DNA of 64,000 nt from Candidatus Eiseniibacteriota bacterium. Its GTDB lineage: Bacteria; Eisenbacteria; RBG-16-71-46. Both the position numbers and the translations under genes were made by a program. Under the pieces are notes generated by a model. That model made no database searches and was not told where the DNA came from. It worked only from the letters and a program-made list of their open reading frames with translations. Positions 1 to 50,290 of the stretch are shown here, one piece after another. Where the stretch lies: contig OY970178.1 of the NCBI GenBank assembly GCA_963707915.1, forward strand, positions 288,001-352,000, written 5' to 3'. The first letter of the stretch is position 1. Each line of letters begins with the position of its first letter.

Positions 1-807
1 GAGGTCCGGGTCGTCTTCACCGACCTCACCGACCTCACGACCTACACCGGCGTGAACGACCAGAACGGGAACCCGCCGCCGCAGCGCTACAGCATCACCA
101 ACGTGCTGCCGAACGACGTCAACGTGAAGTTCACGATGTGCATGAGCGGCACGCCGACGACCGGCGCTCCCTGCGTCATCGGCAGCGCGGCGCAGATCGG
201 TGCCTGGGGCACGGGGGTCGCGATGACCAACGTCTCCGGCGAGCTGTGGAACGTCACCGTCACCTTCCCGGCCGGCAGCAGCCCCGCCTTCGAGTACAAG
301 TACAAGGCCGACGACTGCGTGAACTGGGAAGGCGTGGGGAACCACTCCGTCCTGCTGCCGACCAACGGCACCACGCTGGTCGAGCTGGCGCCGGACAGCT
401 ACAACAACGCCCCGCTCGGCTGCGGCCTGGCCCCGCTGAGCGCGGACAAGGTCGTCTGCTACCGGCTGTGCATGGCGGGGGTCGCCGGTCCGGACGTCTG
501 CGTGATCGGCTCCGGCCCGCAGCTCACGAACTGGAGCACGGGCGTGCCCATGACACTGATCGGCACCGACCTGTACGAGGCCTGCGTCACGTACGCGGCC
601 GGCACCCCGATCCAGAACATCGAGTTCAAGTTCAAGAAGGACGGCTGCTCGACGTGGGAGAGCGTGGGCAACCGCCTGCTGACCATCGACAACGGCAGCC
701 CGGCCTCGCAGACCCTCACCAACAGCTGGGACAACGGCGCGGCCTCGTGCTCGCCGGTCGACACCCGGCGCACCACCTGGGGCAAGGTGAAGTCGATCTA
801 CCGGTAG
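1..807 (+). CDS. Secreted protein with two tandem CBM20-like starch-binding domains and a C-terminal TWGKVKSIYR tail (5'-partial)
   Basis: Frame is open from base 1. Two repeats: CVIGSAAQIGAW...FEYKYK...WEGVGN and CVIGSGPQLTNW...IEFKFK...WESVGNR, matching the CBM20 pattern (vvGs..qLG.W, eYKy, WE...NR). Adjacent to amylolytic genes. Confidence 0.8.
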   Translation, partial: EVRVVFTDLTDLTTYTGVNDQNGNPPPQRYSITNVLPNDVNVKFTMCMSGTPTTGAPCVIGSAAQIGAWGTGVAMTNVSGELWNVTVTFPAGSSPAFEYKYKADDCVNWEGVGNHSVLLPTNGTTLVELAPDSYNNAPLGCGLAPLSADKVVCYRLCMAGVAGPDVCVIGSGPQLTNWSTGVPMTLIGTDLYEACVTYAAGTPIQNIEFKFKKDGCSTWESVGNRLLTIDNGSPASQTLTNSWDNGAASCSPVDTRRTTWGKVKSIYR

Positions 808-925: not shown

Positions 926-1321
926 TGTGGAGTCTCAGGACGTTGTTCTCACCCGGGGTCGCAACCGACTGAAGGGTGGTAGGCCGTCCAGACTACCGTG
1001 TGGACGTCTCTGGTTGTAGTAGCGAAGCCAGCGGGGCAGGACGCGGGCCCGGACCTCGGAGGTCAGGTAGGCGGCCCCGTAGGCCCACTCGCGGATCAGG
1101 GTCTGGATGAAGCGCTCGGCCTTGCCGTTCGTCCTCGGGCGGTAGGGCCGCGTACGTTTGTGGACCAAGCGCAGCCGTTCCACCTCGTGAGCAAAGCAGC
1201 GCGCGAGGTAGCCCGAGCCGTTGTCACTGAGGATTCGGCGGATGCGGATGCCCAAGGTGCGGAACCAGGCCACAGCACGACGCAGGAACGCTGCCGAGGT
1301 CACGCCGGTCTCGTCCCGCAG
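926..1321 (-). mobile_element. Truncated IS481-family element (3' part of transposase plus right end)
   Basis: Translation LRDETGVTSAAFLRRAVAWF...ILSDNG...RPYRPRTNGKAERFIQTL..EWAY...YN..RPHGSL is the IS481 integrase-core C-terminus. Terminal TGT at 926 abuts CCTAGC (920-925), an NCTAGN-type target. The typical NNVLRLHS* ending lies in another frame. Confidence 0.9.
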
Positions 1322-4438: not shown

Positions 4439-7400
4439 TCAGGGCAGGATGATGAGCCGCTTCACCTGCTGGCTGGCGCCGGCCGAGAGTCGCACGAAGT
4501 AGAGACCCGACGCAAGGCTCCGGCCGCCGTTGTCGCGCCCGTCGCAGGCCACGCGGTACTCGCCGGCTGGCTGCACCGCGCGCACCAGCGTGCGCACCAG
4601 CCGCCCGCCCAGGTCGTAGACCTCGAGCGAGACCGCCACCGGCCCGTGCGTGCCGGGCAGCGCGTAGGCGACGATCGAGCGGCCGCGCGTCGGGTTGGGG
4701 ACCGGCGTGGCGAGCGACAGCGCGCGCACCGCCGGCGCCCCGCGGTCCACGGCGACCGGCGGGCCCTGGAACTGGATGCTGGTCTGGGCGGCCGCGTTGT
4801 GGAAGCACGAGACGTCGGCCACGCCGCTGGCGATCGCCGTGTAGGGCACGTGGGACATGGGCGAGACCAGCAGGCGGACGCTCTGCTGGTCGGCCTGCAG
4901 CGTGGCGCTGCGCACCTCGAGCGAGGCCGAGGGGTTGCCGGTCTGGTAGATGGTGTAGCGGGTGGCCTGGTTCGCGGTGGCCGCGGTCACGGGCTCGTCG
5001 AACTGGACCGTGATGACGCTGTCCCAGCCGGTGTAGGCCGCGCCCACGAGGGTGGGGGCGGTGCGGTCGGTCGCGTCGGGCACGCCGTCGGCGTTCGCGT
5101 CCACAGTGACGAGCCGGAAGTCGTCGAGGGTCGGGGCGGTGGCAGCGAGGTTGTTCGGGGCCTGGTCGCCGCCGAGCGCGCCGCCCGGCTCGGGGTCCCA
5201 GGCCAGCGAGGCCACGAAGCCGACCGAGGCGCCGGACGGGACGCGACCGGCGCCCAGGCCGTAGAGCGTGTTCCAGGGGATGGCGATCTCGCTGCCGCCG
5301 TTGAGCCCGTGGGTGTGCATGGGGTCGAAGGCCGCGAGGATGGCCGGCGTCGAGTCGGCGGAGGTCGTGGCGCTCGTCAGCTTCCAGAACGACTGCCCGT
5401 CGTAGATGCCCTGGTGCTGGTAGGAGCCGAACTGCCAGTCCGGCTTGAACCCGGCCGCCGTGAACTGCGCTCCGCGTTCCCAGTGATCGATGGTCCGCAG
5501 GTCGGTGAATCCGTTGGGGCCGTTCGGGTCGGTGTCGAGGTAGAGCAGCCAGGAGTTGCCCGTGACCACGCCACGGATGCCCAGGTAGAGGTAGGTGCTG
5601 TCCCACTGGCAGTAGACCGCCTGGATCTCGTTGTTCGTCTGCCCCGGCGAGTTCCAGCCCGAGTCGAACGAGTCGGCGACCGCCATGGTGCAGGACGGCC
5701 ACTCGGACGGGTTGACGTAGCCGTCGAGGGTGATGAGCGTCGGCGGGCCGTAGGAGACCGGCACGTTGCCCGCGTTGGTGAGCAGGGCGCACGGGTTCGC
5801 CGCCGGATCCCGCACCGCGCCCGGCTGCAGCAGCAGGCGCATCTGGTTGTGGTCGACGCCCTGGATGGCGGTGTGGACCGCGCCCGAGACCAGGATCGTG
5901 AGGATCGCGCTGTTCGCGCCGTTCAGCACCGTGCAGCCGCCGTCGAGCGTGACCTCGGCGGTGCCGTCGTTGTTCGCGTCGACGGCGATGCCGGCCATCG
6001 TGACCTGGTCGTAGCGCACGGTCTCGTCGAAGGTGAGCGTCAACTGGTGGGTGGCGGGGAAGTAGGTCCCGCTCACCGCCTCGGGCGGGAGCCGGTCGCC
6101 GAGCGCGGCGGACAGCGCCTGCAGCTCCGCCACGTTGCCGCCGCCGTCGGGCGCGGAGGTCGGGCCGGCGTAGACGTAGAACTCGAACTTCTGCGTGCCG
6201 CGCACCTCGTCGGCCTTCATCAACGTGCCGCCGACCTCCTTCTGGAACTGGGCGCCGCCGCCGCCGAGCACGAAGGCGCCGGTCGCCCCGGTGTTCGGGT
6301 TGCGCCGGCCCATGTAGGAGATGTCGGGGGCCCAGATGCGGTCCATGCGGGCGTTGTAGAGCAGGTCCACCAGGTCGGGCGTCCAGCCGCTCTGGATGTA
6401 CTGGGTGTTGGCGCCGACGCGGTAGACGCAGTCCAGGTAGGGCTGGCCGAGCGTCAGGCGCACCACCTTCTTCACGCCGGAGTGGGCGAACGTGGCCTGG
6501 ACGGTGTTCCCCGACGAGGTGTCCACCTGCATCGCGTAGAACTCGCCCTGGTGGTCGGGGCCGACGTCCGAGAGCGCGGCGACGTGGTTGCCGTCGTTGT
6601 AGTCGCCCTCGGTGCCGTACCAGTAGGCGTTGTCCACCCCCACCACCGAGAAGCTGGCCGGGCCGCTCTTCGCGAACACCCACGGGGCCCGCCCGCCGAT
6701 CGACTCGAAGGCCGCCAGCACGCGGTCGTTGTACATCACCAGCTCGCTGTTGCCGTCGTCGTCGATGTCCGAGAAGTAGGCGCCCGTCGGATTGACGAAC
6801 TGTCCGCCGGCCCAGCGGGCCGCCTCGGCGTAGACGCTCGCGTTCTTGATGTGCGCCGAGTACTGGCGCTGCCAGCCCGAGAGCGGTCCGCCGAGGTAGT
6901 CGTGCCAGCCGGTCTCGTGCAGGTTGGTCATCATCACGTACCAGCCGGCCTCGCGGATGTTGTTGTCCGGGGCGGCCTGCAGCGCCGCGTGCGCATCGTT
7001 CCAGAGCGTGCCGTGGTCCTTGCAGTTGCCGCCCGTGCCCGCGCAGCCGCCGCTGCCGTTGCCGCCGGTGGAGTAGGGGACGTAGCCGGCCCAGTCGGCG
7101 TACCAGGCGTTGTTGTTGCCGCCGTAGCCGTTGACGTCGCCGATCCCGCCGTAGGTGCCGTTGGCCGGCGTGAAGGTGTCGCCGTTGAAGTTGGCGTTGG
7201 CCAGCGCCGGATCGAGCTTCCAGGTGTGCAGCCACGCGCTCTCGGTGGCGCACTTGTCGATCATCCACTGGTAGGTGCCGTAGGCGTAGGGGAAGTCGGT
7301 CGCCCAGTTGCCCAGCCCGGCGGCCATCTCCCAGTCGTCCGCGTAGGTGACGAGACGGTAGGTGCCCAGCCCGGAGCCTGCGAGTCCGGAGAGCACCGCG

Positions 7401-8644
7401 AGCGCCCCGGCGCCGTCGCCGGAGTGGAGCTTGCCGGTGAAATCGGAGTCGCGCGGGATCAGGCGCAGGCCGGTGCCGGACATCGTGTGGATCCGGTGGT
7501 TGTCGTGGCCTTGGAGGTGGGGCCAGTCGTCGAGGATCACGCCGTCGATGCCGTGCGACTGCCAGTGGTTCGAGGTCGCATCGATGACCCCGTCGCCGGG
7601 GTACTGGCCGGGCGTGAGCCAGACCCGCTCGGGCACCCAGGCGACATGCGGCGTGTAGCCGTAGCGCCAGGTGTCCATCGCGACCTGGCGATCGATCGCC
7701 CAGTCGTTCATCGCTCCCTGCAGGAACGGCAGGATGGGCTGGCCGTAGGCCGAGGAGACGATGCCCAGCCAGCCGGCCGTCACGCCCGCGCGCATCCACG
7801 CGTTGAAGTCCACCGGGTCGCCGTTCCTCGCGTCCCACTCGGCCGAGGACTGCAGCAGCCCGCTCAGGTGGACGTTGACCGGAACGTTCTTGTTCTGGTG
7901 GACGCGCAGGATCTCGTCGAACCCGCTGGAGGCCTCGGCGCCCGATCGGCCGTGGAAGACGTCGCTGTAGGTGAGCCCCTGGTTGCCGAAGTGCATGAAG
8001 GCGACGTTCGCCTCGTAGGCCGCAGCCTGCTGCCCGCCCAGTGGGACCACCAGGCGGTCGAGCTCGCGGCCCCGCGCCAGCGTGATGACCGCGGCCTGCC
8101 GCGGCGCGCCGGCGCCGCGCGGCAGCGAGGCGGCGAGCCACCCCTGCTCGAGGTGGAAGGCGGCGCGATCGGCCGCGAGCGGCGTGCCGGGCTCGAGCGC
8201 GGCGGCGCTCACCAGTGCCGGTCGGTCGGCGCCCGGCTCCAGGACGACCATCCGGTCCCAGGCGAAGGGCGCCCGTCCCCGCAGCGGCGCCGGCAGGTCG
8301 GTGTTGCGGCCGGTCCCCTCGTCCAGCAGGAGGAGGGCGCGGACCTGCCCGCGCTCGAAGTGGTTGACGCGGTCGCGGATTCCCAGCGGGGCCACCAGGC
8401 TCACGCGGAACGTGAGGTCATCCCCCTCATCGTAGTATAATGCAAGGATGTTGGCGGCACTCTCGAGCTCGCCGACACCGGTCCGGATGTGGCCGATGCC
8501 GACGACCGAGCCGCGCGGCCAGGCGTCGGGGCGGGCGAGCAGGGCCTCCGCCCGCCGGGGAACCGCCGCGGACGCCGAGAGGGCGATGAGCGAACCCAGG
8601 AGGATGACGAAGGTGACGAGGACGTGGGGGCGGGCAGGTCGCAT
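4439..8644 (-). CDS. Large secreted GH57-family glycoside hydrolase with Ig-like domains and C-terminal FlgD-Ig/T9SS-like domain
   Basis: Signal peptide. GH57-like motifs FMHFGNQ, SSAYGQPILP, AWVPERVW (nucleophile Glu), YADDWE (acid/base Asp). Ends PVPNP...YDLGGRLVRTL...DGRDNGG...SGLYFVRL. Confidence 0.75.
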   Translation of the reverse strand: MRPARPHVLVTFVILLGSLIALSASAAVPRRAEALLARPDAWPRGSVVGIGHIRTGVGELESAANILALYYDEGDDLTFRVSLVAPLGIRDRVNHFERGQVRALLLLDEGTGRNTDLPAPLRGRAPFAWDRMVVLEPGADRPALVSAAALEPGTPLAADRAAFHLEQGWLAASLPRGAGAPRQAAVITLARGRELDRLVVPLGGQQAAAYEANVAFMHFGNQGLTYSDVFHGRSGAEASSGFDEILRVHQNKNVPVNVHLSGLLQSSAEWDARNGDPVDFNAWMRAGVTAGWLGIVSSAYGQPILPFLQGAMNDWAIDRQVAMDTWRYGYTPHVAWVPERVWLTPGQYPGDGVIDATSNHWQSHGIDGVILDDWPHLQGHDNHRIHTMSGTGLRLIPRDSDFTGKLHSGDGAGALAVLSGLAGSGLGTYRLVTYADDWEMAAGLGNWATDFPYAYGTYQWMIDKCATESAWLHTWKLDPALANANFNGDTFTPANGTYGGIGDVNGYGGNNNAWYADWAGYVPYSTGGNGSGGCAGTGGNCKDHGTLWNDAHAALQAAPDNNIREAGWYVMMTNLHETGWHDYLGGPLSGWQRQYSAHIKNASVYAEAARWAGGQFVNPTGAYFSDIDDDGNSELVMYNDRVLAAFESIGGRAPWVFAKSGPASFSVVGVDNAYWYGTEGDYNDGNHVAALSDVGPDHQGEFYAMQVDTSSGNTVQATFAHSGVKKVVRLTLGQPYLDCVYRVGANTQYIQSGWTPDLVDLLYNARMDRIWAPDISYMGRRNPNTGATGAFVLGGGGAQFQKEVGGTLMKADEVRGTQKFEFYVYAGPTSAPDGGGNVAELQALSAALGDRLPPEAVSGTYFPATHQLTLTFDETVRYDQVTMAGIAVDANNDGTAEVTLDGGCTVLNGANSAILTILVSGAVHTAIQGVDHNQMRLLLQPGAVRDPAANPCALLTNAGNVPVSYGPPTLITLDGYVNPSEWPSCTMAVADSFDSGWNSPGQTNNEIQAVYCQWDSTYLYLGIRGVVTGNSWLLYLDTDPNGPNGFTDLRTIDHWERGAQFTAAGFKPDWQFGSYQHQGIYDGQSFWKLTSATTSADSTPAILAAFDPMHTHGLNGGSEIAIPWNTLYGLGAGRVPSGASVGFVASLAWDPEPGGALGGDQAPNNLAATAPTLDDFRLVTVDANADGVPDATDRTAPTLVGAAYTGWDSVITVQFDEPVTAATANQATRYTIYQTGNPSASLEVRSATLQADQQSVRLLVSPMSHVPYTAIASGVADVSCFHNAAAQTSIQFQGPPVAVDRGAPAVRALSLATPVPNPTRGRSIVAYALPGTHGPVAVSLEVYDLGGRLVRTLVRAVQPAGEYRVACDGRDNGGRSLASGLYFVRLSAGASQQVKRLIILP

Positions 8645-11600
8645 GGGAGGCTCCGGATCGCAGGGTCAGCCCGGTGCAGATAGCGCGGGAAGCGAGCCCT
8701 ATGATTCTAAGGTCGCCAGGTGCACCGGTCAACGGCCGCCCGCCGCGCCCGGGGGCTCCGCCCGGCGCGTCATCCTCGGCCTGGCGCTCCTCGCCGCCGG
8801 GGCCCTGGCCGGGCGGCCGGGCGTCGCCGCCACGCCATCGCCCGCGGACTGGCGCGACCTGGTCATCTACCAGGTCCTCACCGACCGCTTCTCCGACGGG
8901 AACCCGGCCAACGACTTGGTGGAGGGCAGCTACGCCCCGGCCGACGGCTACCGCATCCACGGTGGCGACTTCGCCGGCCTGACGGCGCGGCTCGACTACC
9001 TGTCGAACCTCGGGGTGGACGCCGTGTGGATCTCGCCGGTGGTGCTCAATGCCAACGCCGAGTACCACGGCTACGCGGCGCGCGACTTCTTCTCGATCGC
9101 GCCGCACTTCGGCACGCTCGCCGACCTGCGCCAGTTCATCCAGGCGGCGCACGCGCGCGGCATCCGGGTCATCATCGACATGGTCTGCAACCACATGGGC
9201 ACGCTCATCAACAGTTCGGGCTCGGGCTGGCCCGCCTACAAGTACCCGGCCGGCTACACGCTCAAGTGGGCGAATTCCGGGAAGCGCTTCGCCGGGGTGT
9301 TCGACGATCTGACCAAGTTCCATCCCTACGGCGACATCGGCAACTTCTCGGACCCCGAGCAGATCCTCGGGCAGCTCTCCGGCCTGAACGACCTCAAGAC
9401 GGAGGACCCCGCCGTCCAGCTCGCGCTCTACCAGGCCGCCCGGTTCCTCATCGACAGCACCGATTGCGACGGCTTCCGGGTGGACACCGTCAAGCACGTG
9501 GAGATGTCCTTCTGGAACACCTGGTGCGCGAACGTGCGCCTGTATGCGGCGATCGCCGGGAAGACGCACTTCCTGATGTTCGGGGAGGCCTTCGACGGCG
9601 ACGACGCCAAGGTGGGCTCCTACACCGGCACGATGGCCGGGGGCAACTACAAGTTCGACTCGATGCTCCACTACCCGATGTACTTCACCACCAACGGCGT
9701 GTTCGCCTTCAACGACGCGCCGGCTAATCTCACCAGCCGCTACGCCGCGCTCGCCAACTACGACGTCTCGACCCGCGAGCGGCTCACCACCTTCCTCGAC
9801 AACCACGACAACGCGCGCTTCCTCTCGTTCGGGCTCGCCAACCAGGACGAGAGCCGCCTGCGCGCTGCGCTGGCCTGGCTGCTCACCTCGCGTGGCGTGC
9901 CGATCCTGTATTACGGGACCGAGCAGAACTTCGACGGCGGCGGCGACCCGTGGTGCCGCGAGGACATGTGGGCCGGGCAGTGGAACTACGGTCCGTCGCT
10001 GGGCGACAACTTCGACGAGTCCCACGCACTGTTCCGCCACGTGCGCGAGATCCTGGAGGCCCGCCGGCGCCACGAGGCCCTGCGGCGCGGGGCCACGACC
10101 GAGCTGTACGCCGAGGCCACGGGACCGGGGCTCTACGTCTTCCGCCGCGAGAGCGCGACCGACAGCGTGCTGGTGGCGATCAACACATCCAACGGTCCGC
10201 TGACGCGCGAGGTGGCCACGCCGTGGCCCGCGGGCACGGGGCTGGTGGACGCGCTCGAGCCCGGGCTGACCGCGACGGTGGGCGCGGGCGGTGCGCTCGC
10301 GCTGCCGCTGCCGGCGCGGGGCGCGCGCATCTACGAGTCGGCCTCGGCGCGCGCGGCGGGGCTCGCGGCGGAGGACCGGCTTCACGTGACGGGCGTGGCG
10401 CCGGCCCACGACCGGGCCGTCAACGACCTGTGGTCCCCGTTGATCGTCGCCTTCGACCGCGAGGTGGACGGGGCGGCGTTGGCCGGCGCGTTCAGCGTCA
10501 CGCCCGCGACGGCGGGCACGTGGCAGGCGTCCGGGCGGGAGGCGCGCTTCTACCCGGGCACCCCCTGGAGCGCAGGGCAGACCTACGCCTGGGCGATCGA
10601 CACCACCCTGCGCGCGACCGACGGCGCCCGGCTCCCCGCACGTTTCGAAGCCCGCTTCCGAACGCTCGCCTACTCGACCGGCGTCACCGTGCCGGCGGGC
10701 TACGTCGCCGACCGCATCGCGCGCCAGGACCTCGAGGCGCCCGAGGGGCTGCTGCCCGCTCCCTGGCTCGGGCCCGGCGTGATGCTGCTGGCCGACGCGG
10801 GACGCGACCGGCTCTTCACGCTCACCACCGGCGGCGACCTCGGCCACTACCTCGGCGACTCGCGCTGGAGCAGGCCCGAGGGCCTGGCGCTCGCCGCCGA
10901 CGGCAGCCTCGCGGTGACCGACCCCAACGGGCTCTTCCAGGCCGACGCGCACCGCATGACCACGCTCGCGCTGGGCGGCTCGACCGCCACGGCGGCCGGG
11001 GCCCTGGCCGGCGGACCGGGCGCGTTCCTCGACCGGCTCTACCTCTGCGACCCGGCGAATGACCGCGTGGTGCGCACCACGGCCGGCGGCGCGCTCGAGA
11101 CGTTCGCCACCGGCGTGAAGGGCGGCAAGGGACTGGCGTTCGGCCCCGGCGGTGCCTGGGGCACCGATCTCTACGTCGCCGACTGCGATCTCACCTCGCT
11201 CGGCGCCACCGCCGACGGGCCCGGTCGCATCGCGCGTGTGACGCCCGCGGGCGTGGTCAGCACGGTGGCGCAGAACTCCCTCCTGCTGGGCGCCGGCGCC
11301 ATCGCGATCGACCCGTCCGGGCGGTTCGGCGGCGACCTGTTCGCGGCCGACATCCTGAACGAGCGCATCCTGCGCGTCACCGCCGCGGGCTCGGTGAGCG
11401 TCTTCGCCACCGGCTTCGCGAACCTCGCGGGCTCCGGCTGCCTGGCCTTCGGCGACGACGGCGCGCTCTACGTGGCCGACCCCGGCGCGGGCGAGTCGTT
11501 CTCGAAGCCGGGCGGGACGGTGGCGCAGGGCCAGGTCATCCGCATCGCGCCCGCGGTGCTGACCGTGGACGTCCCGCCGGGGGCGCAGGACGTCGGGCTC

Positions 11601-11870
11601 GAATTCGCGCCGCCGGCGCCCAACCCGGCGAGAGGACCGGTGGCCTTCCGCTTCGCGCTTCCGGCCGCGGGGCGCGTCCGGCTGGCGGTCTTCGACGTCA
11701 CCGGGCGCCAGGTCGCGGTGCCGGCGGATGGCGCGTTCCCCGCCGGGGTGCACACCGTGGTTTGGGGCGGAGGCGCCGGGGCCGCACCGCCCGCGGAACC
11801 GGGGCTCTACTTCGCCCGGATCGAGGCGGGCGGGAGCCGGCTCACCCGCCGGATCGTCGTGATCCCATGA
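8643..11870 (+). CDS. Secreted GH13 alpha-amylase-family protein with Ig-like, beta-propeller-like and C-terminal FlgD-Ig domains (start uncertain)
   Basis: IYQVLTDRF, GGDFAGL, YHGY, DMVCNH, DGFRVDTVKH, FGEAF, FLDNHD (catalytic D/E/D intact). Hydrophobic signal VILGLALLAAGALA. Nearest in-frame ATG is 8643; GTG 8720 is out of frame by one base. Confidence 0.9.
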   Translation: MGGSGSQGQPGADSAGSEPYDSKVARCTGQRPPAAPGGSARRVILGLALLAAGALAGRPGVAATPSPADWRDLVIYQVLTDRFSDGNPANDLVEGSYAPADGYRIHGGDFAGLTARLDYLSNLGVDAVWISPVVLNANAEYHGYAARDFFSIAPHFGTLADLRQFIQAAHARGIRVIIDMVCNHMGTLINSSGSGWPAYKYPAGYTLKWANSGKRFAGVFDDLTKFHPYGDIGNFSDPEQILGQLSGLNDLKTEDPAVQLALYQAARFLIDSTDCDGFRVDTVKHVEMSFWNTWCANVRLYAAIAGKTHFLMFGEAFDGDDAKVGSYTGTMAGGNYKFDSMLHYPMYFTTNGVFAFNDAPANLTSRYAALANYDVSTRERLTTFLDNHDNARFLSFGLANQDESRLRAALAWLLTSRGVPILYYGTEQNFDGGGDPWCREDMWAGQWNYGPSLGDNFDESHALFRHVREILEARRRHEALRRGATTELYAEATGPGLYVFRRESATDSVLVAINTSNGPLTREVATPWPAGTGLVDALEPGLTATVGAGGALALPLPARGARIYESASARAAGLAAEDRLHVTGVAPAHDRAVNDLWSPLIVAFDREVDGAALAGAFSVTPATAGTWQASGREARFYPGTPWSAGQTYAWAIDTTLRATDGARLPARFEARFRTLAYSTGVTVPAGYVADRIARQDLEAPEGLLPAPWLGPGVMLLADAGRDRLFTLTTGGDLGHYLGDSRWSRPEGLALAADGSLAVTDPNGLFQADAHRMTTLALGGSTATAAGALAGGPGAFLDRLYLCDPANDRVVRTTAGGALETFATGVKGGKGLAFGPGGAWGTDLYVADCDLTSLGATADGPGRIARVTPAGVVSTVAQNSLLLGAGAIAIDPSGRFGGDLFAADILNERILRVTAAGSVSVFATGFANLAGSGCLAFGDDGALYVADPGAGESFSKPGGTVAQGQVIRIAPAVLTVDVPPGAQDVGLEFAPPAPNPARGPVAFRFALPAAGRVRLAVFDVTGRQVAVPADGAFPAGVHTVVWGGGAGAAPPAEPGLYFARIEAGGSRLTRRIVVIP
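8704..8732 (-). promoter_or_regulatory. sigma70-type promoter for the GH57-malEFG unit
   Basis: Minus strand TTGACC (8732-8727), 17 bp spacer, TAGAAT (8709-8704), about 60 nt upstream of ATG 8644. Confidence 0.7.
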
Positions 11871-11972: not shown

Positions 11973-12505
11973 CTACCGGGCGACGACGAACCTGGAGACG
12001 AATGTCCGGCCGCCGGTCGCCAGCCTCACGAAATAGAGCCCCGCGGGCACCGCGCGCCCGCTCTCGTCGCGTCCGTCCCAGGTGAGCGCGCTTTCTCCGG
12101 CGGGCTGGGTGCGGGAGAGCAGTCCGCGCACGCGGCACCCCTGCGGGTCGTAGAGCCCCAGGTCGACCGCCGCCGCGCGCGGCAGGCCGAATCTCAGCGT
12201 GGTGAACCCGGGCGCCGGCTTGGGGGCCGGCGCGGCGAGGCAGAGGACTCCCGGCCGCTCCCCATCCACCACCCCCGCGACCACGACCGGGTAGGTCGTG
12301 GCGTAGCCGCCGACATCGCCGTGGACGTCCACGGCGCAGAGCTTGTAGTACAGGAACGCGCCGACCGGGTCGGCGTAGCCGGTGTCGGGCAGGGTCGCGA
12401 TCAGGTTCCCGGCGCCGGGCACGAAGCGATGACGAGGGCGGCAAACATCAGGAAGGTCGGCAACGGTGCCGCGGGCAGGTGCATGGCGTGCCTCGGCTGG
12501 ATCAT
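11973..12505 (-). pseudogene. Remnant of a secreted FlgD-Ig-tailed protein (signal-like start out of frame with C-terminal domain)
   Basis: ATG 12505 gives MIQPRHAMHLPAAPLPTFLMFAALVI then stops at 12401. Another frame from ~12428 gives FVPGAGNLIATLPDTGYAD...YYKLCAVDVHG...WDGRDESGRAVPAGLYFVRL* with no good start. Confidence 0.6.
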
Positions 12506-25971: not shown

Positions 25972-28900
25972 ATGAAGAAGTCGCTCGTCCTGGTCCTTTC
26001 CTTCGTGCTGGGCCCCTTGTCCTGGGTGGCCATCGCCTCGGGCGCCGCTCCGGCCCCGACGGCGATCGAGCGTGAGTTCCACTACGGCCCGGGCCAGTTC
26101 ACGCTGACCCCGAACGCCGACGGCACGACCCAGGTGGAGATGGGCTCGGGGACGCGGGAGTACGCGGCCGGCCGGCCGGACCTGCCCCTGGTCGGCGAGC
26201 GAGTGGAGTTGCCCCTGGGGTCACGGCTCGCCGCGGTGGAGGTCCTCGAGCTCGAGACCGTCCCGCTCGCGCAAGGGGTGCGGCTGCCCAGCGCGATGGT
26301 CATTCGTCCCGGCGAGGAGACCGTCGAGCGCACGGTGCCGGACTCCGCGATCTTCGGCCAGGCCGGCTTCGTCCCGGAGCAGCTGGCGCAGGTCGGCGCA
26401 CAGGGATTCGAGCGCGGCGTGGTGGTGGCCTACGTCATGGTCGCCCCGGTGAGGTGGAACCCGGCGACGGGCGAACTGGAGCGCGTCGAGCGGATACGCG
26501 TGCGGCTGGTGCTCGAGGCCTCCGCCGGACGGCCGCTGGAGCGCGATCGGGTGGTGCCCGATTGGGAGGACGGCGCCGCGCGGACAGCCGCGCTGCGCTC
26601 GCCCGCGGTCCAGCCGGCGTCCCTGGTCGCCGGCACGCGGCGGGCGGAGCCCTTCAAGGCCACCCAGGTGCCCTCGCTGCTGGGCAGCCCGGTCGCCTAT
26701 GTCATCGTCACGAACGACGCGATGGCGCCGGCCTTCCAGCAGCTCGCGGACTGGAAGACGCGGAGCGGCGTGCCGGCCGTGGTCCGCACGCTCTCGTTCA
26801 TCAAGCAGCAGTACTCGCTCGGCGCCGACGACGCCGAGCGCGTCCGCCTCTTCCTGCGCGACGCCTACTCGCGCTGGGGCACGAAGTGGGTGCTGCTGGG
26901 GGGCGACACCGACGTGATCCCCACTCGCTTCGCCCGCACGACCTACTACGGCGGCGAGACGATCGCCACCGACCTCTATTTCTCCTGCCTGGACGGCAAT
27001 TGGAACGGCGACGGGGACAACGTCTACGGCGAGGGCATCTCCAGCGTCCCGCCCGCGCTGGGGGACTCCGCCGACCTCTTCCCCGAGGTCTTCGTGGGGC
27101 GCCTTCCGGCCAGCACGCTGGCCGAGGCGCAGGTGCTCGTGGACAAGGCCCTGAAGTACCAGCGGGAGCCCGTGGGCGACTACATGAAGAACCTCATCTC
27201 CTTCGCCGAGGTGCTCTTCCCGAACCCGTGGTCGGCGGGCATGTCGACCCAGCTCGACGGCGCCGAGCTCATCGACTACGACCTGCTTCCCATCCTGGAC
27301 ACCGTGCCCTGGATCCACTCCGCCCGGCTCTACGAGAACTACCCCGACACGCGCTGGCGGGCGGGCTCACTTCCCGAGACGCGGGCCGCCGTGATCGATT
27401 CGCTGAACCGGGGCTACAACGTCGCGCTCCACGTCGGCCACGGCTACCGCAACGTCATGAGCGTGGGGGACAACAGCCTCACCAACACCGACGCGACGGC
27501 GCTCACCAACGGGGACCGCCTGACGAACCTCTACGCCATCAATTGCAACTCGGCCTCGATCGACTACCCGTGCATCGCCGAGGCGTTCATGAAGGCCCCC
27601 CTCGGCGGCGCCGTCACCGTCGTCGGCTCCACGCGCTACGACTTCCCGACGTACGGCCGACAGTACAAGAAGGAGTACTTCCAGCTCCTGTACCAACGGG
27701 GCGTCTCCGCCGTCGGCGAGTTGCAGGCGCGCCAGAAGCTGCCGTTCGCCGGCTTTTCCGAGTACGACGGCGTGCACCGCTGGACGCAGATGGCGCTGAT
27801 CCTGCTGGGTGACCCCGAGCTCCACATCTACACCGACACCCCGCGCGTGCTCAGCGTCACGCATCCGTCCTCGATGCCGGTCAGCGACTCGGCGCTGGCC
27901 GTGAACGTGGCGGTGGGCGGCGTGCCGCTGGACAGCGCCCTCGTCACGGTGTACCGGGCGGGCCACGAGTACGCCAGCGCCCTCACCGACGTGGCCGGGA
28001 ACGTGACGCTGGCGGTGCGGCCCGATACGGTCGGCGCCCTGGCGCTGACCGTGACCGGGTACAACTGCCGGCCCTACCAGGCGTCGATCGACCTCGTGGC
28101 CGGCGGCTACCCCGCGCTCGCGGTGCGCGCGGTGCGCATCGAGGACGGCGGGACGGGGGGCACTTCCGGCAACGGGAACGGGCTCTGGGACGCGGGCGAG
28201 ACGGTCGCGCTGTACCCGATGCTGCGGAACAATGGCGGCTCGGCCGCGACCGCGCTGTCGGGCACGCTGCTGACCCCCGACGGGCTGGTCACCGTCCTGC
28301 AGCCGGCTGCCGGCTACGGCACGATCGCCGCGGGAGACAGCGCGAGCCCATCGGCGGGCCTGCTCGTCCGCCTTCCGTTCACGGCGGACGACCAGCGCGA
28401 GGTCCCCTTCGAGCTGCGCCTGGCGGACGGCTCGGGGCGCACCTACGTCGGGCGCTTCCAGCTGACGGTGCGGGCCCCGGAGTTGAGGCACATCGGGCAC
28501 GTCGTGACCGACGGCAACGCGAACGGGATCCCCGACGCGGGCGAGACGGTCAGCTACGCGGTCAAGCTGCGGAACCTGGGCAGCGGAGTCGCGCGGAGCG
28601 TGTCGGCCCGGCTGCGCAGTCTCGACGGGCTCGCCACGGTGACGGACAGCATCTCGGTATGGGGCGACATCCAGCCCGGCGAGGAGCGGACCGGTGACGG
28701 ATTCACGTTCACGCCGTCGAGCGCCGCCGCCACGCTCCAGCTCGTGGTGTCGGACGGTTACGGGGAACGCCTGCGGGAGACGATGGACATCCTGTACCCG
28801 GCCACGCCGACCGGCCTGGCGGCCTCCGGGTCGGCGGGCACCATCACGCTCACCTGGACGAAGTCCCCGGATGAGGACCTGGCCGGCTACAACGTCTACC

Positions 28901-30696
28901 GCGCCGCCGTGCCCGCCGGGCCGTTCGTCAAGATGACCCCGGTCCCCACCGGCCGGACGGCCTACTTCCTGGACGACGGGCTCGCGCAGCTCACCCGCTA
29001 CTACCACAAGGTCTCGTCGGTGGACATGTCCGGCAACGAGTCGGCGCTCACGTCGGCGGTATCCTCGAGCACGAACCCGCCGATGCATTCCATGTTCCCG
29101 TTCCCGACGCGACGCCTGTCACCGGCCCCGGTGGTGGTGGACCACATCTACGCCGGCTACCCGATGGACATCGTGGTCGGCGCCGACGTGCTGTACGTCT
29201 GGCACCCGGACGGCAAGACCCCGGTGGACGCCGACGGTTCCGGTTCCACTCCGGGCGATTTCACCACCCTGGGCAGCTACTACGCGGGCGGTCCCAGCGT
29301 CGCCGACCTCGACGGCGGCACCAAGGAGATCATCGGCGCCACCCAGGACAACAACAGCGTGTACGTGTTCGACCTCGCCGGCCAGAGCAAGCCGGGCTGG
29401 CCGGTCACGCTCCCCGACGCCATGTACGGGGCCGTGGCCGTCGCCGACCTGCAGGGCGACGGGCTGAAGGAACTGGTGGTGGCCTCGAACGGCTACAGCG
29501 TCTACGCGTTCCGCGCGAACGGCACCGAGCTGCTGGACGGCGACAACAATCCGGCGACCTTCGGCGTGTTCAAGCGGACGGGCGGCCTGTACAACTACGG
29601 TTCGCCGACGCTGGCGCCGCTCCAGAACGACGGCACGAACTCGATCGTCTTCGCCGGAAGGGACGCGCACCTCTACGCGTGGCGCTACGACGGCGCCGAC
29701 CTGCCCGGATTCCCCGTGCACCTCGGGGGCGGCGCGCTCGCCTCGACGGCGGTGGGGAGCCTGGACGGACCCGCGGGCCCGCTCAGCATCGTGGTGCCGG
29801 CACTGAACGACTCGGTCTACGTGATCCGTGCCGACGGTTCGCGCCGGCCCGGATTCCCGGTCCGCTGCCGCATGGAGTCGACCTACGGGCGGCACCCATC
29901 GCCCGCGCTGGCCGACATGAACGGCGACGGCTACCTGGAGATCGTCCAGGCCAGCACCGACGGCCTGCTGTACGTGTGGGACCGCAACGGCGTCGTCGTC
30001 CCGGGCTGGAACGGCGTCCGCTACAGCACGCTCACGACGCAGGCGTCCGAGTGCAGCCCGGTCGTGGCGGACATCAACGGCGACGGCCATCCCGACGTCG
30101 TCGTCGGGGATGCGAACGACGAACTGTCGGCGTTCTCGGGAGCCGACGCCAGCATGCTGCCCGGGTTCCCCATCCAGCTCGCCGGCGAGGTGGTCGCCAC
30201 CCCCGCGTTGTGCGACTGCGACGGCGACGGGAACACCGAGATCGTGGCCATGGGCCTGGACTTCAACGTCTACATGTGGGACTACGACTTCCCCTTCTCG
30301 CCCGGGCAGGTCCCGCCTTGGCCGCAGTACCACCACGACGCCGCGCGCACGGGCTACGCCGGGACCCCGATCCTGGCCGGAGCCGGGGACGAAGCCACGC
30401 TCCAGCCCCGCGCGCTCGAACTGGCGCCGCCGGCCCCCAATCCGGCGCGGAGCGCGATGCGCCTGTGGTACGGCATTCCCGCCGACCGGGTGGGGGAGGC
30501 GCTCGACCTGGCGATCTACGATCTCAGCGGGCGGCGCGTGCGCACCCTGCAGGGCGGGCGCGCCGAGGCCGGCCGCCACTCCGCGGCGTGGGACCTGCGC
30601 GACGAGTCGGGGTCGCCGGCCCGACCCGGCGTGTACTTCGCGCGTCTCGCGCTGGGCGCCGAGGCCCGCACGCGGAAGCTCGTCCTCGTCCGCTGA
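25972..30696 (+). CDS. Secreted gingipain-like peptidase C25 with propeptide, FnIII-like, FG-GAP repeats and C-terminal FlgD-Ig domain
   Basis: GRPDLP propeptide; YVIVT, LADWK, WVLLGGD, TDLYF, VGRLP, HVGHG (His), AINCNS (Cys), LLGDPEL; ADLDG/ADMNGDG/ADINGDG repeats; PAPNP...YDLSGRRVRTL...GVYFARL. Confidence 0.9.
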   Translation: MKKSLVLVLSFVLGPLSWVAIASGAAPAPTAIEREFHYGPGQFTLTPNADGTTQVEMGSGTREYAAGRPDLPLVGERVELPLGSRLAAVEVLELETVPLAQGVRLPSAMVIRPGEETVERTVPDSAIFGQAGFVPEQLAQVGAQGFERGVVVAYVMVAPVRWNPATGELERVERIRVRLVLEASAGRPLERDRVVPDWEDGAARTAALRSPAVQPASLVAGTRRAEPFKATQVPSLLGSPVAYVIVTNDAMAPAFQQLADWKTRSGVPAVVRTLSFIKQQYSLGADDAERVRLFLRDAYSRWGTKWVLLGGDTDVIPTRFARTTYYGGETIATDLYFSCLDGNWNGDGDNVYGEGISSVPPALGDSADLFPEVFVGRLPASTLAEAQVLVDKALKYQREPVGDYMKNLISFAEVLFPNPWSAGMSTQLDGAELIDYDLLPILDTVPWIHSARLYENYPDTRWRAGSLPETRAAVIDSLNRGYNVALHVGHGYRNVMSVGDNSLTNTDATALTNGDRLTNLYAINCNSASIDYPCIAEAFMKAPLGGAVTVVGSTRYDFPTYGRQYKKEYFQLLYQRGVSAVGELQARQKLPFAGFSEYDGVHRWTQMALILLGDPELHIYTDTPRVLSVTHPSSMPVSDSALAVNVAVGGVPLDSALVTVYRAGHEYASALTDVAGNVTLAVRPDTVGALALTVTGYNCRPYQASIDLVAGGYPALAVRAVRIEDGGTGGTSGNGNGLWDAGETVALYPMLRNNGGSAATALSGTLLTPDGLVTVLQPAAGYGTIAAGDSASPSAGLLVRLPFTADDQREVPFELRLADGSGRTYVGRFQLTVRAPELRHIGHVVTDGNANGIPDAGETVSYAVKLRNLGSGVARSVSARLRSLDGLATVTDSISVWGDIQPGEERTGDGFTFTPSSAAATLQLVVSDGYGERLRETMDILYPATPTGLAASGSAGTITLTWTKSPDEDLAGYNVYRAAVPAGPFVKMTPVPTGRTAYFLDDGLAQLTRYYHKVSSVDMSGNESALTSAVSSSTNPPMHSMFPFPTRRLSPAPVVVDHIYAGYPMDIVVGADVLYVWHPDGKTPVDADGSGSTPGDFTTLGSYYAGGPSVADLDGGTKEIIGATQDNNSVYVFDLAGQSKPGWPVTLPDAMYGAVAVADLQGDGLKELVVASNGYSVYAFRANGTELLDGDNNPATFGVFKRTGGLYNYGSPTLAPLQNDGTNSIVFAGRDAHLYAWRYDGADLPGFPVHLGGGALASTAVGSLDGPAGPLSIVVPALNDSVYVIRADGSRRPGFPVRCRMESTYGRHPSPALADMNGDGYLEIVQASTDGLLYVWDRNGVVVPGWNGVRYSTLTTQASECSPVVADINGDGHPDVVVGDANDELSAFSGADASMLPGFPIQLAGEVVATPALCDCDGDGNTEIVAMGLDFNVYMWDYDFPFSPGQVPPWPQYHHDAARTGYAGTPILAGAGDEATLQPRALELAPPAPNPARSAMRLWYGIPADRVGEALDLAIYDLSGRRVRTLQGGRAEAGRHSAAWDLRDESGSPARPGVYFARLALGAEARTRKLVLVR

Positions 30697-38846: not shown

Positions 38847-39799
38847 GACGGTCCTGGCTGGCGATGATGGGGATGGCCTTCGCACTGGGGACCCTGACGG
38901 CCGCGGCGCCGGCGCGCGCCGAGGAGTACACGATCGGGCCCGAGGACGTCCTGCAGGTCTCCGTCTGGATGCACCCGGAGCTGGAGCGCACGGTCACCGT
39001 GGACGCGGACAGCAGCATCACGTTCCCGCCGGTGGGCGGCCTCAAGGCCGGCGGCCAGACCACCAGCCAGCTGGCCACGCGGCTCGCGGACCGGCTGTCG
39101 AGCTACCTGCGCCAGACCGCCACGGTGACGGTGACCGTCAGGCAGTACCTGAGCCAGAGCGTGTTCGTCTCGGGCGGTGTGGCCACGCCGGCACGGTACG
39201 GCTTCGAGCGGTTGCCCGGGCTGATCGACGTCATCAGCCGGGCGGGCGGCGCGATCGCCGGCGCGGACCTCTCCCAGGTGCAGATCATCCGGCGGGAAGG
39301 GGACCTGCGACGCCCGCAGACGGTGGACGTGGCCCGTGCGCTGCGCCAGGGCTCCGACGCGGGACTGCCGGCGCTCCGGCCGGGGGACGTGGTCGTGGTC
39401 CCGGTGGAGGCCGCCCGCGGGGCCGCGACCGGGAGCGACGTCGTCGGCGTGCTGGGCGAGGTGACGCGGCCGGGCCTGTACCCGGTCGGGTCGGGCCAGA
39501 GCCTGTGGATGGTCCTGGCCGCGGCGGGCGGAGTCACTCCGGTGGGCAAGCTGGCGGACGTGCGGGTCGTGCGCCCGAAGGACGCCGGCACGTCGGTCTT
39601 CAGCGTGAACCTCAAGCAGCAGCTGGCCAACGGCGCGCGCGAGTCGTTCGTGGTCAGCCCGGGCGACGTGGTGTTCGTCGCCGGCCGCGGCGGCCTGGCC
39701 AACACCTGGATCGCCCTGACGCAGTTCCTCTCGATCTCCCGCGACCTGGCGAACATCGTCGTGGTCGCCGACTACCTCAACCGCCAGAGCGGCAACTGA
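38843..39799 (+). CDS. wza: Polysaccharide export (OPX/Wza-like) protein with SLBB domains
   Basis: YTIGPEDVLQVSVW, ITFPPVG, LRPGDVVVVP, VLGEVTRPGLY; SPI-type signal without Cys. Confidence 0.85.
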   Translation: MRRSWLAMMGMAFALGTLTAAAPARAEEYTIGPEDVLQVSVWMHPELERTVTVDADSSITFPPVGGLKAGGQTTSQLATRLADRLSSYLRQTATVTVTVRQYLSQSVFVSGGVATPARYGFERLPGLIDVISRAGGAIAGADLSQVQIIRREGDLRRPQTVDVARALRQGSDAGLPALRPGDVVVVPVEAARGAATGSDVVGVLGEVTRPGLYPVGSGQSLWMVLAAAGGVTPVGKLADVRVVRPKDAGTSVFSVNLKQQLANGARESFVVSPGDVVFVAGRGGLANTWIALTQFLSISRDLANIVVVADYLNRQSGN

Positions 39800-42057
39800 T
39801 GTCCGTGACCCCCGAACCCGCCACGCTGGACCTGCGCCAGCTCATCCGCGTCCTGCTGCGCCGCCGGTGGCTGTTGGTCCTGCCCTGGATCGCGGCCTCG
39901 CTGGTGGGCGTGGCCGCCGCGTTCCTGCTCAAGCCGGTCTACGTCAGCCAGGTCACGCTGGTGCTGGAGCAGCCGCAGGCGCTCACCGGGCCGCTCGGCG
40001 GCATGGTGGGCGGCGGGGTGAGCGGCGACCAGCAGGCCGAGATGATGCGCGCGCACCTGCTCAGCACGCCGTTCCTGCACAGCGTGATCAGCGCGGCCGG
40101 CCTGAGGACCGACGCGGCGGCGCGGGCCTGGGCGCTGACCGGCGCGAAGCGGTATCCGGGGCTGACCCCGGACCAGCAGGTCGAGGCGTTCCTGACCGAC
40201 TACCTGCGCGGCGTCATCGAGGTGCGGCGCGAGCGGGGGGACGTGTTCGAGATCTCGGTCGGCGATTTCGAGCGCGAACGCGCCCAGCGGCTGGCCCGGT
40301 CGGTCAGCAGCCAGTTCGTGATGGTCTCGAAGGCGGCGCAGCTCGAGGCCACGCGCGGCACCCAGGTCTTCTCGGTCGAGCAGCAGGAGGTCTACCGGCG
40401 CAAGCTGGTGGAGAGCGAGGCGCGTCTCGAGGCGGCCTCGCGCGCGGCGCAGGGCAGCAGCCTGCCGCAGGTGGACGCCACCAACGCGACGCGCGCCCGC
40501 GGGCTGCTCGAGCAGGCCAACCTCGAGCTCGAGGAGCAGCGGCAGAAGGTCTCCGGGCTCCGGGCCCAGCTGCAGGACCGGGGACTGGCCGGCGACCTCG
40601 ACCTGATCTCGAGCCCGCGCACCACGGCGATGGCCGCGCAGCTCGCGCAACTCGACCGGCAGCTCTCCGCCGTCCTCCTGACCGAGGCCGCCCGGACCGA
40701 GCCGGGCGCCGACGGGGGCGCGGGCGTGCGGCTCCTGATCAGCCGCAAGTACGCCGAGCTCGAGGACGAGCTGGACCGCAACGCCGCCACGGCGCTGCCC
40801 GCGCTCCCGCCGGACGCGCACGAGTTGCTGGTGCGCACGCGCCTGGCGCAGGCCGACATGGGCGCCAAGCAGGCCGGGCACGACGAGATCGAGCGGCAGG
40901 TGTCGAGCTACCAGCGGGAGCAGTCGCTGTCGCCGGACCGCGACCTCGCCGTCCAGCGTCTCCGGCAGGAGGTCGAGGCGAACCGCACGCTGTACAACTC
41001 CTTCGTCCAGCAGGCGGCGGCCTCGCAGATCAGCGAAGCCTTCCAGAACGCGCGGGTCGGCGGGCGCTTCAGCGTACTCGAGCCGGCGACGCTCCCGCTC
41101 GCGCCCTCCAAGCCCAACCGCCCGCTCATCGTGATCCTGGCCTTCGTGCTGGGAGGGATCGTGGGCGTGGGGACCGTGCTGGTCGTGGAGCAGCACGACG
41201 ATTCCATGAAGGACGCCCAGGAGGTGGAGAGCCTGCTCGGGCTGCCCGTGCTGGGCGCCGTGCCGCGGGTCGGCGAGCTCGGGCGCTCCTCGCGGCGCAG
41301 CGCTCCCGGTCCGGCGGGCGGAGTGCCGATGCGGAAGGCGGGCGCCGCGGGCAACACCGACGGACTGATCCACCGGCTCAAGGTGGAGAGTCCGCTGGGC
41401 CTCGAGTTCCGGCGCATCTACCTGAAGCTGGCGAAGACCCACGGGCGGACGTTGCCGCGCACCCTGATGATCACGAGCGCGACGCGCGGCGAGGGGAAGA
41501 CCACGATCACCGCCTGTCTCGCGATCACGCTGGCCCGCGAGCTGCGCGAGAAGGTGCTGCTGGTGGACTTCGACCTGCGCAGCCCGTCGCTGCACCGGGC
41601 GCTGGGTCTGCCGAGCGCCAGCTGGGGGCTGGCCCAGATGCTCCAGGGACGCGCCTTCGACGAGCGCCACGTGCGCGCGACCTCGCTGCCGCACCTCGAC
41701 TTTCTGGCCGCGGGCCGCTCCGAACGGCCCGCGGGCGAACTGGTCGACACCGCGGCGTGCGAGTGGTTCTTCCAGGAGGCCCTGGCCCGCTACTCGATGG
41801 TGCTGGTGGACGCGCCCCCCAACCTGGCGGTGCCCGATCCGCTCATCCTCGGCCGGTCGGTCGAGGGCGTGCTCTACGTCATCAAGGCGGGCAGCACGGT
41901 CCGCAAGGCGGCCGAGTACGGGGTCAAGGTGCAGCGCGAGGCTCGCGAGAACGTGATCGGGATCCTGATGAACGACGCCGGGGAGGTGCTGCCCAGCTAC
42001 TACGGCTACCGCGCCGGGAGCTATGGCTACGCCCCGGAGGAGGCGGGCGGCGCCTGA
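39799..42057 (+). CDS. wzc: Polysaccharide co-polymerase / BY-kinase
   Basis: Wzz-like N-terminus, coiled coil, PSKPN + TM, LGLPVLGAVP, Walker A GEGKT, VDFDLR, VDAPP, C-terminal Tyr cluster SYYGYRAGSYGY. Confidence 0.9.
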   Translation: MSVTPEPATLDLRQLIRVLLRRRWLLVLPWIAASLVGVAAAFLLKPVYVSQVTLVLEQPQALTGPLGGMVGGGVSGDQQAEMMRAHLLSTPFLHSVISAAGLRTDAAARAWALTGAKRYPGLTPDQQVEAFLTDYLRGVIEVRRERGDVFEISVGDFERERAQRLARSVSSQFVMVSKAAQLEATRGTQVFSVEQQEVYRRKLVESEARLEAASRAAQGSSLPQVDATNATRARGLLEQANLELEEQRQKVSGLRAQLQDRGLAGDLDLISSPRTTAMAAQLAQLDRQLSAVLLTEAARTEPGADGGAGVRLLISRKYAELEDELDRNAATALPALPPDAHELLVRTRLAQADMGAKQAGHDEIERQVSSYQREQSLSPDRDLAVQRLRQEVEANRTLYNSFVQQAAASQISEAFQNARVGGRFSVLEPATLPLAPSKPNRPLIVILAFVLGGIVGVGTVLVVEQHDDSMKDAQEVESLLGLPVLGAVPRVGELGRSSRRSAPGPAGGVPMRKAGAAGNTDGLIHRLKVESPLGLEFRRIYLKLAKTHGRTLPRTLMITSATRGEGKTTITACLAITLARELREKVLLVDFDLRSPSLHRALGLPSASWGLAQMLQGRAFDERHVRATSLPHLDFLAAGRSERPAGELVDTAACEWFFQEALARYSMVLVDAPPNLAVPDPLILGRSVEGVLYVIKAGSTVRKAAEYGVKVQREARENVIGILMNDAGEVLPSYYGYRAGSYGYAPEEAGGA

Positions 42058-42275
42058 TCGCCGCCCAGGCACGGAGGCCGGTCCGGTGAAGCACGGTGGC
42101 GGGGTGGCCGCCGCGCGGAGCGCGCCGGAAGCCTTCTCGAGGAGTCGCCGTTGCGCATCGTCCGGCTGCTGAAGATCGTCGTCACCCACGTCCCCCGGCG
42201 GCTCGCGGCGCGGCGCGGCCGCCCGGGCCGCGAGCGCGGATCGCGCAGGCGGCCGCAGGGTTCGGGAGGGGGCGC

Positions 42276-46925: not shown

Positions 46926-46939
46926 GCGGAGGACGGCGG

Positions 46940-50288: not shown

Positions 50289-50290
50289 GG

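Follow-up and report, generated by a model that had tools for sequence, protein, structure and literature searches.

What is the short peptide that closes a starch-binding protein at the start of this stretch, and which machinery might read it? The window (the whole stretch of DNA analysed here, 64,000 nucleotides of Candidatus Eiseniibacteriota contig OY970178.1, positions 288,001 to 352,000) opens with the 3' part of a gene (1..807, + strand; genome 287659-288807, starting 342 bases upstream of the window) whose 382-aa product consists of a signal peptide, an unnamed N-domain, two CBM20 starch-binding stretches and a C-terminal appendix. On translation this appendix reads SPVDTRRTTWGKVKSIYR followed by the stop codon (751..807, +), and comprises a hinge (P-V-D-T), a spacer and a predicted helix with the core T-W-G-K-V-K-S-I-Y-R (775..804, +), which we refer to as the TWG tail. 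We found that the tail is a real, terminal and conserved tag on unrelated proteins in two phyla, and that its pattern is identical to the C-terminal helix of one lipoprotein family. Modelling suggests that this uncatalogued ten-residue tag has a specific candidate receptor, a SnoaL/NTF2-like lipoprotein from that family.

A first-pass annotation of the sequence had set the appendix apart from CBM20, noted that it holds no transmembrane helix, and interpreted it as an undescribed sorting tag. The observation itself was confirmed, as the appendix gave no Pfam or NCBIfam match and contained no transmembrane segment, and the interpretation is supported overall by the results below.

The TWG tail terminates unrelated small proteins

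The consensus T-W-G-x-[ILV]-K-x-x-Y-R closes 27-31 unrelated small proteins of the window's genome, and no Pfam or NCBIfam model was found for it when the tail itself and 27 tail proteins were compared. That the tail sits on many unrelated proteins had been proposed by the first-pass annotation. The regular expression that it suggested, [ST]WG.{2}K.{2}[YF]R?$, matched 25 of the 27,622 stop-to-stop frames, one of these matches being an 81-codon frame that is probably non-coding, and a slightly wider expression matched 27. Among 2,778 genes called by a codon model, the core WG.[ILV]K..Y occurred 24 times at the C-terminus and never internally, and the best 31 matches to a hidden Markov model (HMM) of the tail all finished within two residues of the stop. 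The carriers include CBM20, NHL propeller, lamin-tail, cohesin, DUF4114 and choice-of-anchor V domains (over cut-off), along with many unnamed ones.

The expected enrichment of signal peptides among the carriers was borne out: signal-peptide-like starts were present in 27 of 27 tail proteins against 1,015 of the 2,751 other genes (37%), as scored by a lenient heuristic in which the start position was allowed to float. In other genomes, 65 of 73 complete frames of tail proteins had such a start. By the same heuristic the tail proteins measure 178-394 aa. The genome also encodes 74 proteins (61 Pfam matches; median 678 aa) that end in a FlgD-Ig or type IX secretion system (T9SS)-type C-terminal domain (CTD). 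In this genome the two endings exclude each other, as the first-pass annotation had suspected. No TWG motif was seen near the end of the CTD proteins, and tail and CTD swap on paralogous domains; cohesin, for instance, carries the tail at genome 1372693 but a CTD at 1373248 and 1357916, and lamin-tail and other domains likewise carry one or the other on paralogues. The exclusivity breaks down in Poribacteria, where a TWG-like motif is fused ahead of a T9SS CTD.

Orthologs of the host protein showed which positions are constrained. A W-anchored tail was present in 108 of 119 orthologs, and most of the other 11 had an F-G variant. Among the 108, the Lys at +4 was kept in 100% and was never Arg, the Gly at +1 was kept in 94% and the Val at -7 in 88%, and adjacent positions were variable. 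In the window, the codons for W, the invariant K and Y lie at 778-780, 790-792 and 799-801, and all three residues are predicted pocket contacts; the core is regarded as a docking motif on the grounds of this conservation and of the modelled interface. Two related short proteins of the genome (453856-454359, +; 212825-213793, -) end in a variant tail, S-I-G-x-L-K-A-K-Y, with Ile for Trp.

No recurrent machinery was found beside the cargo genes in the neighbourhoods examined. Membrane proteins that by eye resemble GT-C/TMTC-like glycosyltransferases adjoin tail genes at genome 1261577, 1951618, 2445016, 2447322 and 2965259, and these neighbours did not recur beside tail genes in loci of other genomes.

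Distribution of the tail across genomes

A profile of 24 tails gave at least 3,138 matches in 117 of 121 genomes of the phylum, a lower bound in that 67 candidates were scored per genome. The four profile-negative genomes carry one or two tails each; the tail is thus present in all 121 sampled genomes, and the sample holds no tail-free genome for subtraction. In family f7 of this sample (L149-L164, L202, L206, L213) only 1-6 tail proteins were counted, and the lamin-tail-domain and choice-of-anchor V carriers are kept.

A DNA-pattern scan of GTDB returned at least 128 loci, with titles naming Eisenbacteria, Krumholzibacteria, Latescibacterota and Poribacteria and many unnamed bins. One match was due to chance. 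Where a short contig assigned to another phylum gave a single match, misbinning is probable, because two such genomes had one match each. All three lineages named by the first-pass annotation (Eisenbacteria, Krumholzibacteria and Latescibacteria) therefore carry the tail, and Poribacteria have to be added to its list. Three Poribacteria genomes gave 67, 45 and 41 tail matches against 5, 6 and 9 in the control, and reading of 30 loci showed a terminal tail in 29, with the pattern V-E-P-x-x-K-L-x-T-T-W-[GA]-x-[ILV]-K. In a 50%-cluster library we obtained 1,540 matches; in the best 150 the motif ends at most five residues from the C-terminus.

A literature search, with subscription journals and bioRxiv supplements outside its coverage, found no paper describing the motif. 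TWG, Eisenbacteria and Poribacteria are not mentioned in PMC11285876 (in the text available) or in the myxosortase preprint (10.1101/2023.06.07.544157), and TWG is not mentioned in the available text of PMC11969387. Look-ups aimed at a receptor or at the lipoprotein likewise gave nothing. The earlier statement that no machinery is assigned to the tail stands with respect to published descriptions and family models, but it is now qualified by the candidate partner that modelling puts forward.

A SnoaL/NTF2-like lipoprotein family as candidate receptor

Two lipoproteins of the window's genome end in Lys-less versions of the tail. Among the own tails of this lipoprotein family (n = 95), W was kept in 90, G in 93 and Y in 84, and Lys was present in 15. 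The motif occurs in several contexts: some members are tail-less, some have a compact built-in helix, some a linker followed by the tail, and in others the motif is internal, between tandem SnoaL domains. Tail-less lipoproteins are present in both phyla, and the Poribacteria receptors comprise both tail-less members and members with a local-style tail. With a broad lipoprotein profile, members were detected in 19 of 20 own-phylum genomes and 14 of 24 Poribacteria; a narrow profile had missed them in 9 of 9 Poribacteria tested. A full HMM search recovered the family in a Poribacteria genome missed by a fast prefiltered search.

AlphaFold2 predicted the lipoprotein with a pLDDT of 83, and its own-tail helix (residues 252-260) and linker with values of 94 and below 50, respectively. 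The predicted fold is NTF2-like, a curved beta-sheet wrapped round helices, with 57 PDB matches at E <=0.001, and the matches listed are NTF2-like; at the sequence level only sub-threshold SnoaL matches were obtained. The candidate receptor shares this fold with the SnoaL/NTF2-like superfamily (PF13577, PF13474; Foldseek matches 3gzr, 3rob and limonene epoxide hydrolases). However, the listed structures are enzymes or uncharacterised proteins of 8-18% identity, and no listed title is that of a lipoprotein binding a C-terminal peptide.

The complex was modelled from the lipoprotein domain without its own tail and the last 30 residues of the window's protein. The ipSAE values were 0.92, 0.89 and 0.92, compared with 0.02 for the best of three controls; at least 89% of contacts were in agreement between runs and the partner pLDDT was at least 66. 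Of 157 solved pairs, 116 attain the ipSAE mark, as do 2 of 215 mismatched ones, counts that are only an approximate guide for the alignments used here. The modelled binding segment spans tail residues 16-30, and places K near E99, W near I163, L151, V149 and D199, and Y near N105 and L106.

The Lys-Glu pair is further supported by covariation in the alignment, which does not need the model. When residue 99 was compared with the own-tail Lys position (n = 120), the combinations were acidic/polar in 61 sequences, non-acidic/hydrophobic in 54, acidic/hydrophobic in 3 and non-acidic/polar in none, with a gap in 2. Wherever the own tail has Lys at this position, it faces Glu at position 99 (19 of 19 lipoproteins). 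Moreover, the acidic pocket residue is kept in 53 of 59 members without a recognised tail.

A docking model for the tail

Taken on its modelled fit, we lean towards a reading in which the tail is a predicted amphipathic helix that plugs the pocket of the SnoaL/NTF2-like lipoprotein, and would so hold small proteins that probably carry Sec signal peptides at the envelope without a membrane anchor of their own. The signal peptide would export the cargo. In the model, Trp, the aliphatic residue and Tyr would then fill a hydrophobic groove and Gly would allow a close approach of the helix, with a pocket Asp meeting the helix start and the invariant Lys pairing with the conserved pocket Glu, the pair that is backed by covariation. 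The receptor would be a tail-less family member with an open pocket or, in the window's genome, a member whose Lys-less tail on a floppy linker gets displaced. As the least certain step, the lipid-anchored receptor would keep the cargo at the outer membrane, and might hand it over to the beta-barrel whose gene shares the operon. As to origin, the C-terminal helix of the lipoprotein itself was probably copied onto other genes, giving rise to the tag.

Several points weigh against this docking model. Its main weakness is that a complex computed without the lipoprotein's own tail partly restores a contact made in cis; what it demonstrates is fit, and not trans binding inside a cell. In this genome each of the three family members has a tail-like end of its own, with which clients would need to compete, and one to a few receptors would face about 30 clients. 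The Lys-Glu covariation amounts to about two changes on the tree and possibly has one origin. The fast search gave no lipoprotein match in 1 of 20 own-phylum genomes, in 10 of 24 Poribacteria genomes and in G127. Furthermore, the model would cover the motif inside Poribacteria CTD proteins only as a second, tethering signal, and the barrel was found neither beside the Poribacteria receptor nor in the 40% of one Poribacteria genome that was readable.

The lipoprotein-barrel operon

The operon (genome 355448-358973, contig G000:C1) starts 3.4 kb past the window end and contains, all on the - strand, lipoprotein A (355448-356242), lipoprotein B (356239-356907) and the beta-barrel gene (356904-358973). 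A gene of about 690 aa with barrel features lies directly upstream of the lipoproteins in 15 of 15 own-phylum loci, these loci having been chosen for the presence of the lipoproteins. It mostly follows a housekeeping run resembling metG-tatD-ksgA (names from reading of homologues), and the barrel had no match in Pfam, NCBIfam or PDB sequences. A bolder proposal, which we put forward tentatively and regard as doubtful, is that the barrel of about 690 aa and two NTF2-like lipoproteins recognising the ten-residue helix constitute an undescribed outer-membrane export or display system. In each cell, dozens of small proteins would be moved or displayed in this way, next to a type IX module without a motor that handles the large ones, and Poribacteria would use both signals in series.

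Around the Poribacteria receptor (L483:14465-18993 and L484:3-4971 of G122; L460, L461, L464) we observed an unnamed protein of about 560 aa, DUF5683 and the receptor, then in some loci a Wzc-like gene, a protein of about 1,050 aa, and an ExbB/TolQ-like gene (by eye). The protein of about 1,050 aa has a Cys-type signal, a barrel-like end and no Pfam match, and no link between it and the own-phylum barrel was found. A DUF5683-like gene (below cut-off) is also present in the PorU-PorV locus of the window's genome.

The proposed arrangement has analogues in pairs that tether without a covalent bond, for example dockerin-cohesin, and in peptide receptors that have a barrel as partner (BamD/BamA, LptE/LptD). 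They share with it a small appended module, a dedicated envelope receptor, and lipoprotein and barrel genes that occur together, but fold and sequence are unlike. If true, docking of a helix into a lipoprotein pocket would be a third C-terminal sorting design beside membrane-anchor tags and the type IX beta-sandwich, and a very small peptide-protein docking pair. In uncultured phyla that are abundant (Eisenbacteria/Krumholzibacteria of soil and sediment, Poribacteria of sponges) the tag would mark small proteins bound to the envelope, and annotation overlooks this tag altogether. With a named candidate receptor, a predicted Lys-Glu pair and a linked barrel, the step from motif to system can be tested with purified proteins and needs no cultured host.

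Comparison with type IX secretion

The tail might instead be the minimal signal of a reduced type IX system (SprA, PorU, PorV). It would then leave through SprA, PorU would cut it at the P-V/G-V-E-like hinge, and the lipoproteins would be only cargo or adaptors. We consider this unlikely, even though the genomic setting is favourable to it. The window's genome encodes SprA, PorU and three PorV/PorQ-family proteins, all over cut-off, and SprA matches were obtained in 22 of 25 genomes, 19 of them over cut-off; three Poribacteria matches were weak but lay within frames of 2,232-2,246 aa. C25 and PorV, which the first-pass annotation had named for phylogenetic profiling, were each matched in 5 of 5 genomes. 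At the same time, no genome with the tail but without SprA was available against which this co-occurrence could be tested. The outer-membrane part of type IX secretion was present in G000, G082 and G121, the genomes checked for it, and PorM (PF12081) was not found in 5 of 5 genomes (G000, G082, G007, G121, G157), PorK, PorL and PorN not having been searched for. The available text of PMC11285876 lists T9SS only for FCB (Fibrobacteres-Chlorobi-Bacteroidetes) phyla and does not name Poribacteria. In Poribacteria (G121-G123, G138-G216; e.g. L310, L311, L318) we observed SprA-like, C25/PorU-like and PorV-like genes together with type A CTDs that number in the dozens; a TWG-like motif stands ahead of many of these.

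The interchange of tail and CTD on cohesin, lamin-tail and other domains also speaks for a type IX signal, as do the Poribacteria fusions. A TWG-like motif ahead of a TIGR04183 CTD was detected in 79 of 81 Poribacteria (490 matches, control 2) with the pattern G-x-[ILV]-K just before N-[YF]-P-N-P, which itself fixes the Gly and the Lys. Reading of 30 such loci showed in 26 a TWG-like segment with a V-E-P hinge, its W often replaced by L or F, followed by the TIGR04183 domain; in the own phylum, by contrast, no such fusion occurred in 30 loci read. The fused domains match T9SS CTD models only through their Ig part. Profile comparison linked fused with terminal Poribacteria tails (95.8%) and terminal Poribacteria tails with those of this genome (96.7%), but the direct link was weak (38.6%). 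When packing of the motif on the CTD Ig domain was examined in an AlphaFold2 model of a Poribacteria fusion, the motif had a pLDDT of 55-67 and no helix was predicted there.

The hinge resembles the cleavage consensus PT/GI given in the accessible part of PMC11969387. This likeness is weak: among CTD linkers it was seen in 25 of 74, compared with 10-19 for windows further upstream, and among tails in 14 of 119, compared with 2-8. According to the accessible parts of PMC11969387, PMC10202324 and PMC12618676, published short CTDs retain, for PorV binding, three strands together with motifs B, D and E, and their cleavage takes place at PT/GI. The tail lacks these motifs and the beta-sheet that even CTDs of 40-55 aa keep for PorV binding (PMC11969387 and PMC10202324, same parts). 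Finally, the number of tails per genome ranges from 1 to more than 80, whereas the number of CTDs stays high.

Overall, the tail resembles the T9SS type A CTD (TIGR04183/PF18962, here nearer to PF13860, FlgD_ig; among them the Prevotella intermedia short CTDs of 40-55 aa in the available text of PMC11969387) in being C-terminal, in following a hinge of small residues and Val on Sec-type proteins, in swapping with it on the same domains, in sharing genomes with SprA, PorU and PorV, and in the Poribacteria fusions. It differs in having about 10 residues rather than 40-80, a predicted helix rather than a beta-sheet, smaller carriers (median about 240 versus about 680 aa) and, as predicted partner, an NTF2-like lipoprotein rather than PorV. 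Neither the tail nor the 27 tail proteins gave a match to TIGR04183 or PF18962.

Membrane binding, covalent attachment and exosortase

It is improbable that the tail needs no partner and, as an amphipathic helix, attaches by itself to a membrane or to lipopolysaccharide, with the fit to the lipoprotein reflecting only the tail's origin. The tail is indeed basic, its amphipathic character shows in a mean hydrophobic moment of 0.62 at 110 degrees (23 tails), and no linked machinery was seen beside the cargo genes. Nevertheless, the moment is equally high at 180 degrees, so that a helix is not proven, and lipid binding would not demand Gly and Lys as strictly as they are fixed here (in the 108 orthologs Lys was never Arg). 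In addition, the pocket residues are kept in tail-less lipoproteins.

We give slightly less credence still to the invariant Lys as a covalent site, where C25 cleavage would take place after it or its side chain would be linked to peptidoglycan as in Braun's lipoprotein. Invariance in orthologs, C25 peptidases in 5 of 5 genomes tested, and the clean release of the CTD that a cut after Lys would bring about in the Poribacteria fusions would all fit. However, in 81 Poribacteria, 31 of 56 matches had a true stop directly following the Lys, and 7 were confirmed as coding. As these tails stop at the Lys itself, no scissile bond after it is needed, and obligatory cleavage after Lys was ruled out; this ability to stop at Lys fits a binding motif, as in the docking model, better than a cleavage site. 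With the Lys-x-stop pattern, 575 matches were obtained. The invariance of Lys is accounted for by the Lys-Glu covariation, and loss of Lys in lipid-anchored carriers is limited to one lipoprotein family. An explanation of that loss by the lipid anchor was rejected: it holds in this family, where 15 of 95 keep Lys, but fails for distant lipoproteins, which keep it.

That the tail is a degenerate PEP-CTERM signal read by the exosortase encoded in the window (exopolysaccharide locus at 38864-56287, with exosortase, EpsI, PrsK and PrsR) is very improbable. The cargo domains are typical of PEP-CTERM and choice-of-anchor proteins, and the hinge can read V-E-P-S-T. However, the tail lacks a transmembrane segment. 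A search of 57 genomes found no exosortase in 19, among them three Poribacteria and tail-rich genomes of 92-99% completeness (88, 58, 54, 53 and 29 tail matches), and exosortase presence tracks PEP-CTERM (PF07589) rather than the tail. On the strength of these 19 genomes, exosortase was ruled out as the tail reader. Only one PEP-CTERM protein, about 109 aa long, is encoded in the genome (2596448-2596819, -).

The first-pass annotation had likewise set the tail apart from PEP-CTERM and LPXTG, in line with the lack of a hydrophobic segment before its basic cluster. Tripartite signals (LPXTG/sortase, PEP-CTERM/exosortase, GlyGly-CTERM/rhombosortase and MYXO-CTERM/myxosortase, 10.1101/2023.06.07.544157) are similarly short C-terminal tags with a basic end on dozens of unrelated proteins per genome, and share cargo domains with the tail (choice-of-anchor V, DUF4114, ScyF-like NHL, lamin tail). 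The tail differs in lacking a transmembrane segment, in that no co-occurring sorting protease was found, and in showing no sign that cleavage is needed. It fails a defining feature of each sorting family tested.

Surroundings of the host gene

The first CBM20 domain of the host protein, its best Pfam stretch, is encoded at 118..375 (+), and the second matched stretch lies between it and the tail. The host gene adjoins a maltose-type ATP-binding cassette (ABC) transporter and CTD-bearing glycoside hydrolases. One neighbour (4439..8644, -) carries the alternative FlgD-Ig/T9SS type A-like CTD and no TWG tail; a second (8448..11870, -), alpha-amylase-like by eye, also ends in a CTD and has no TWG tail. 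An apparent gene remnant at 11973-12420 (-), consisting of a CTD and a short upstream piece with no signal peptide, ends a long spurious frame. Further on, 25972-30696 (+) encodes a C25 peptidase of 1,574 aa that combines FG-GAP repeats with a CTD; it belongs to a set of four C25 proteins and is not the PorU orthologue. Directly after the host gene stop, a G+C-rich inverted repeat (820-860) is terminator-like, without a T run. At 935-1303 (-), a truncated transposase-like frame (integrase core, IS481-like by eye) overlaps the end of the ABC permease gene, and a longer copy of it is located at genome 3126717-3127577.
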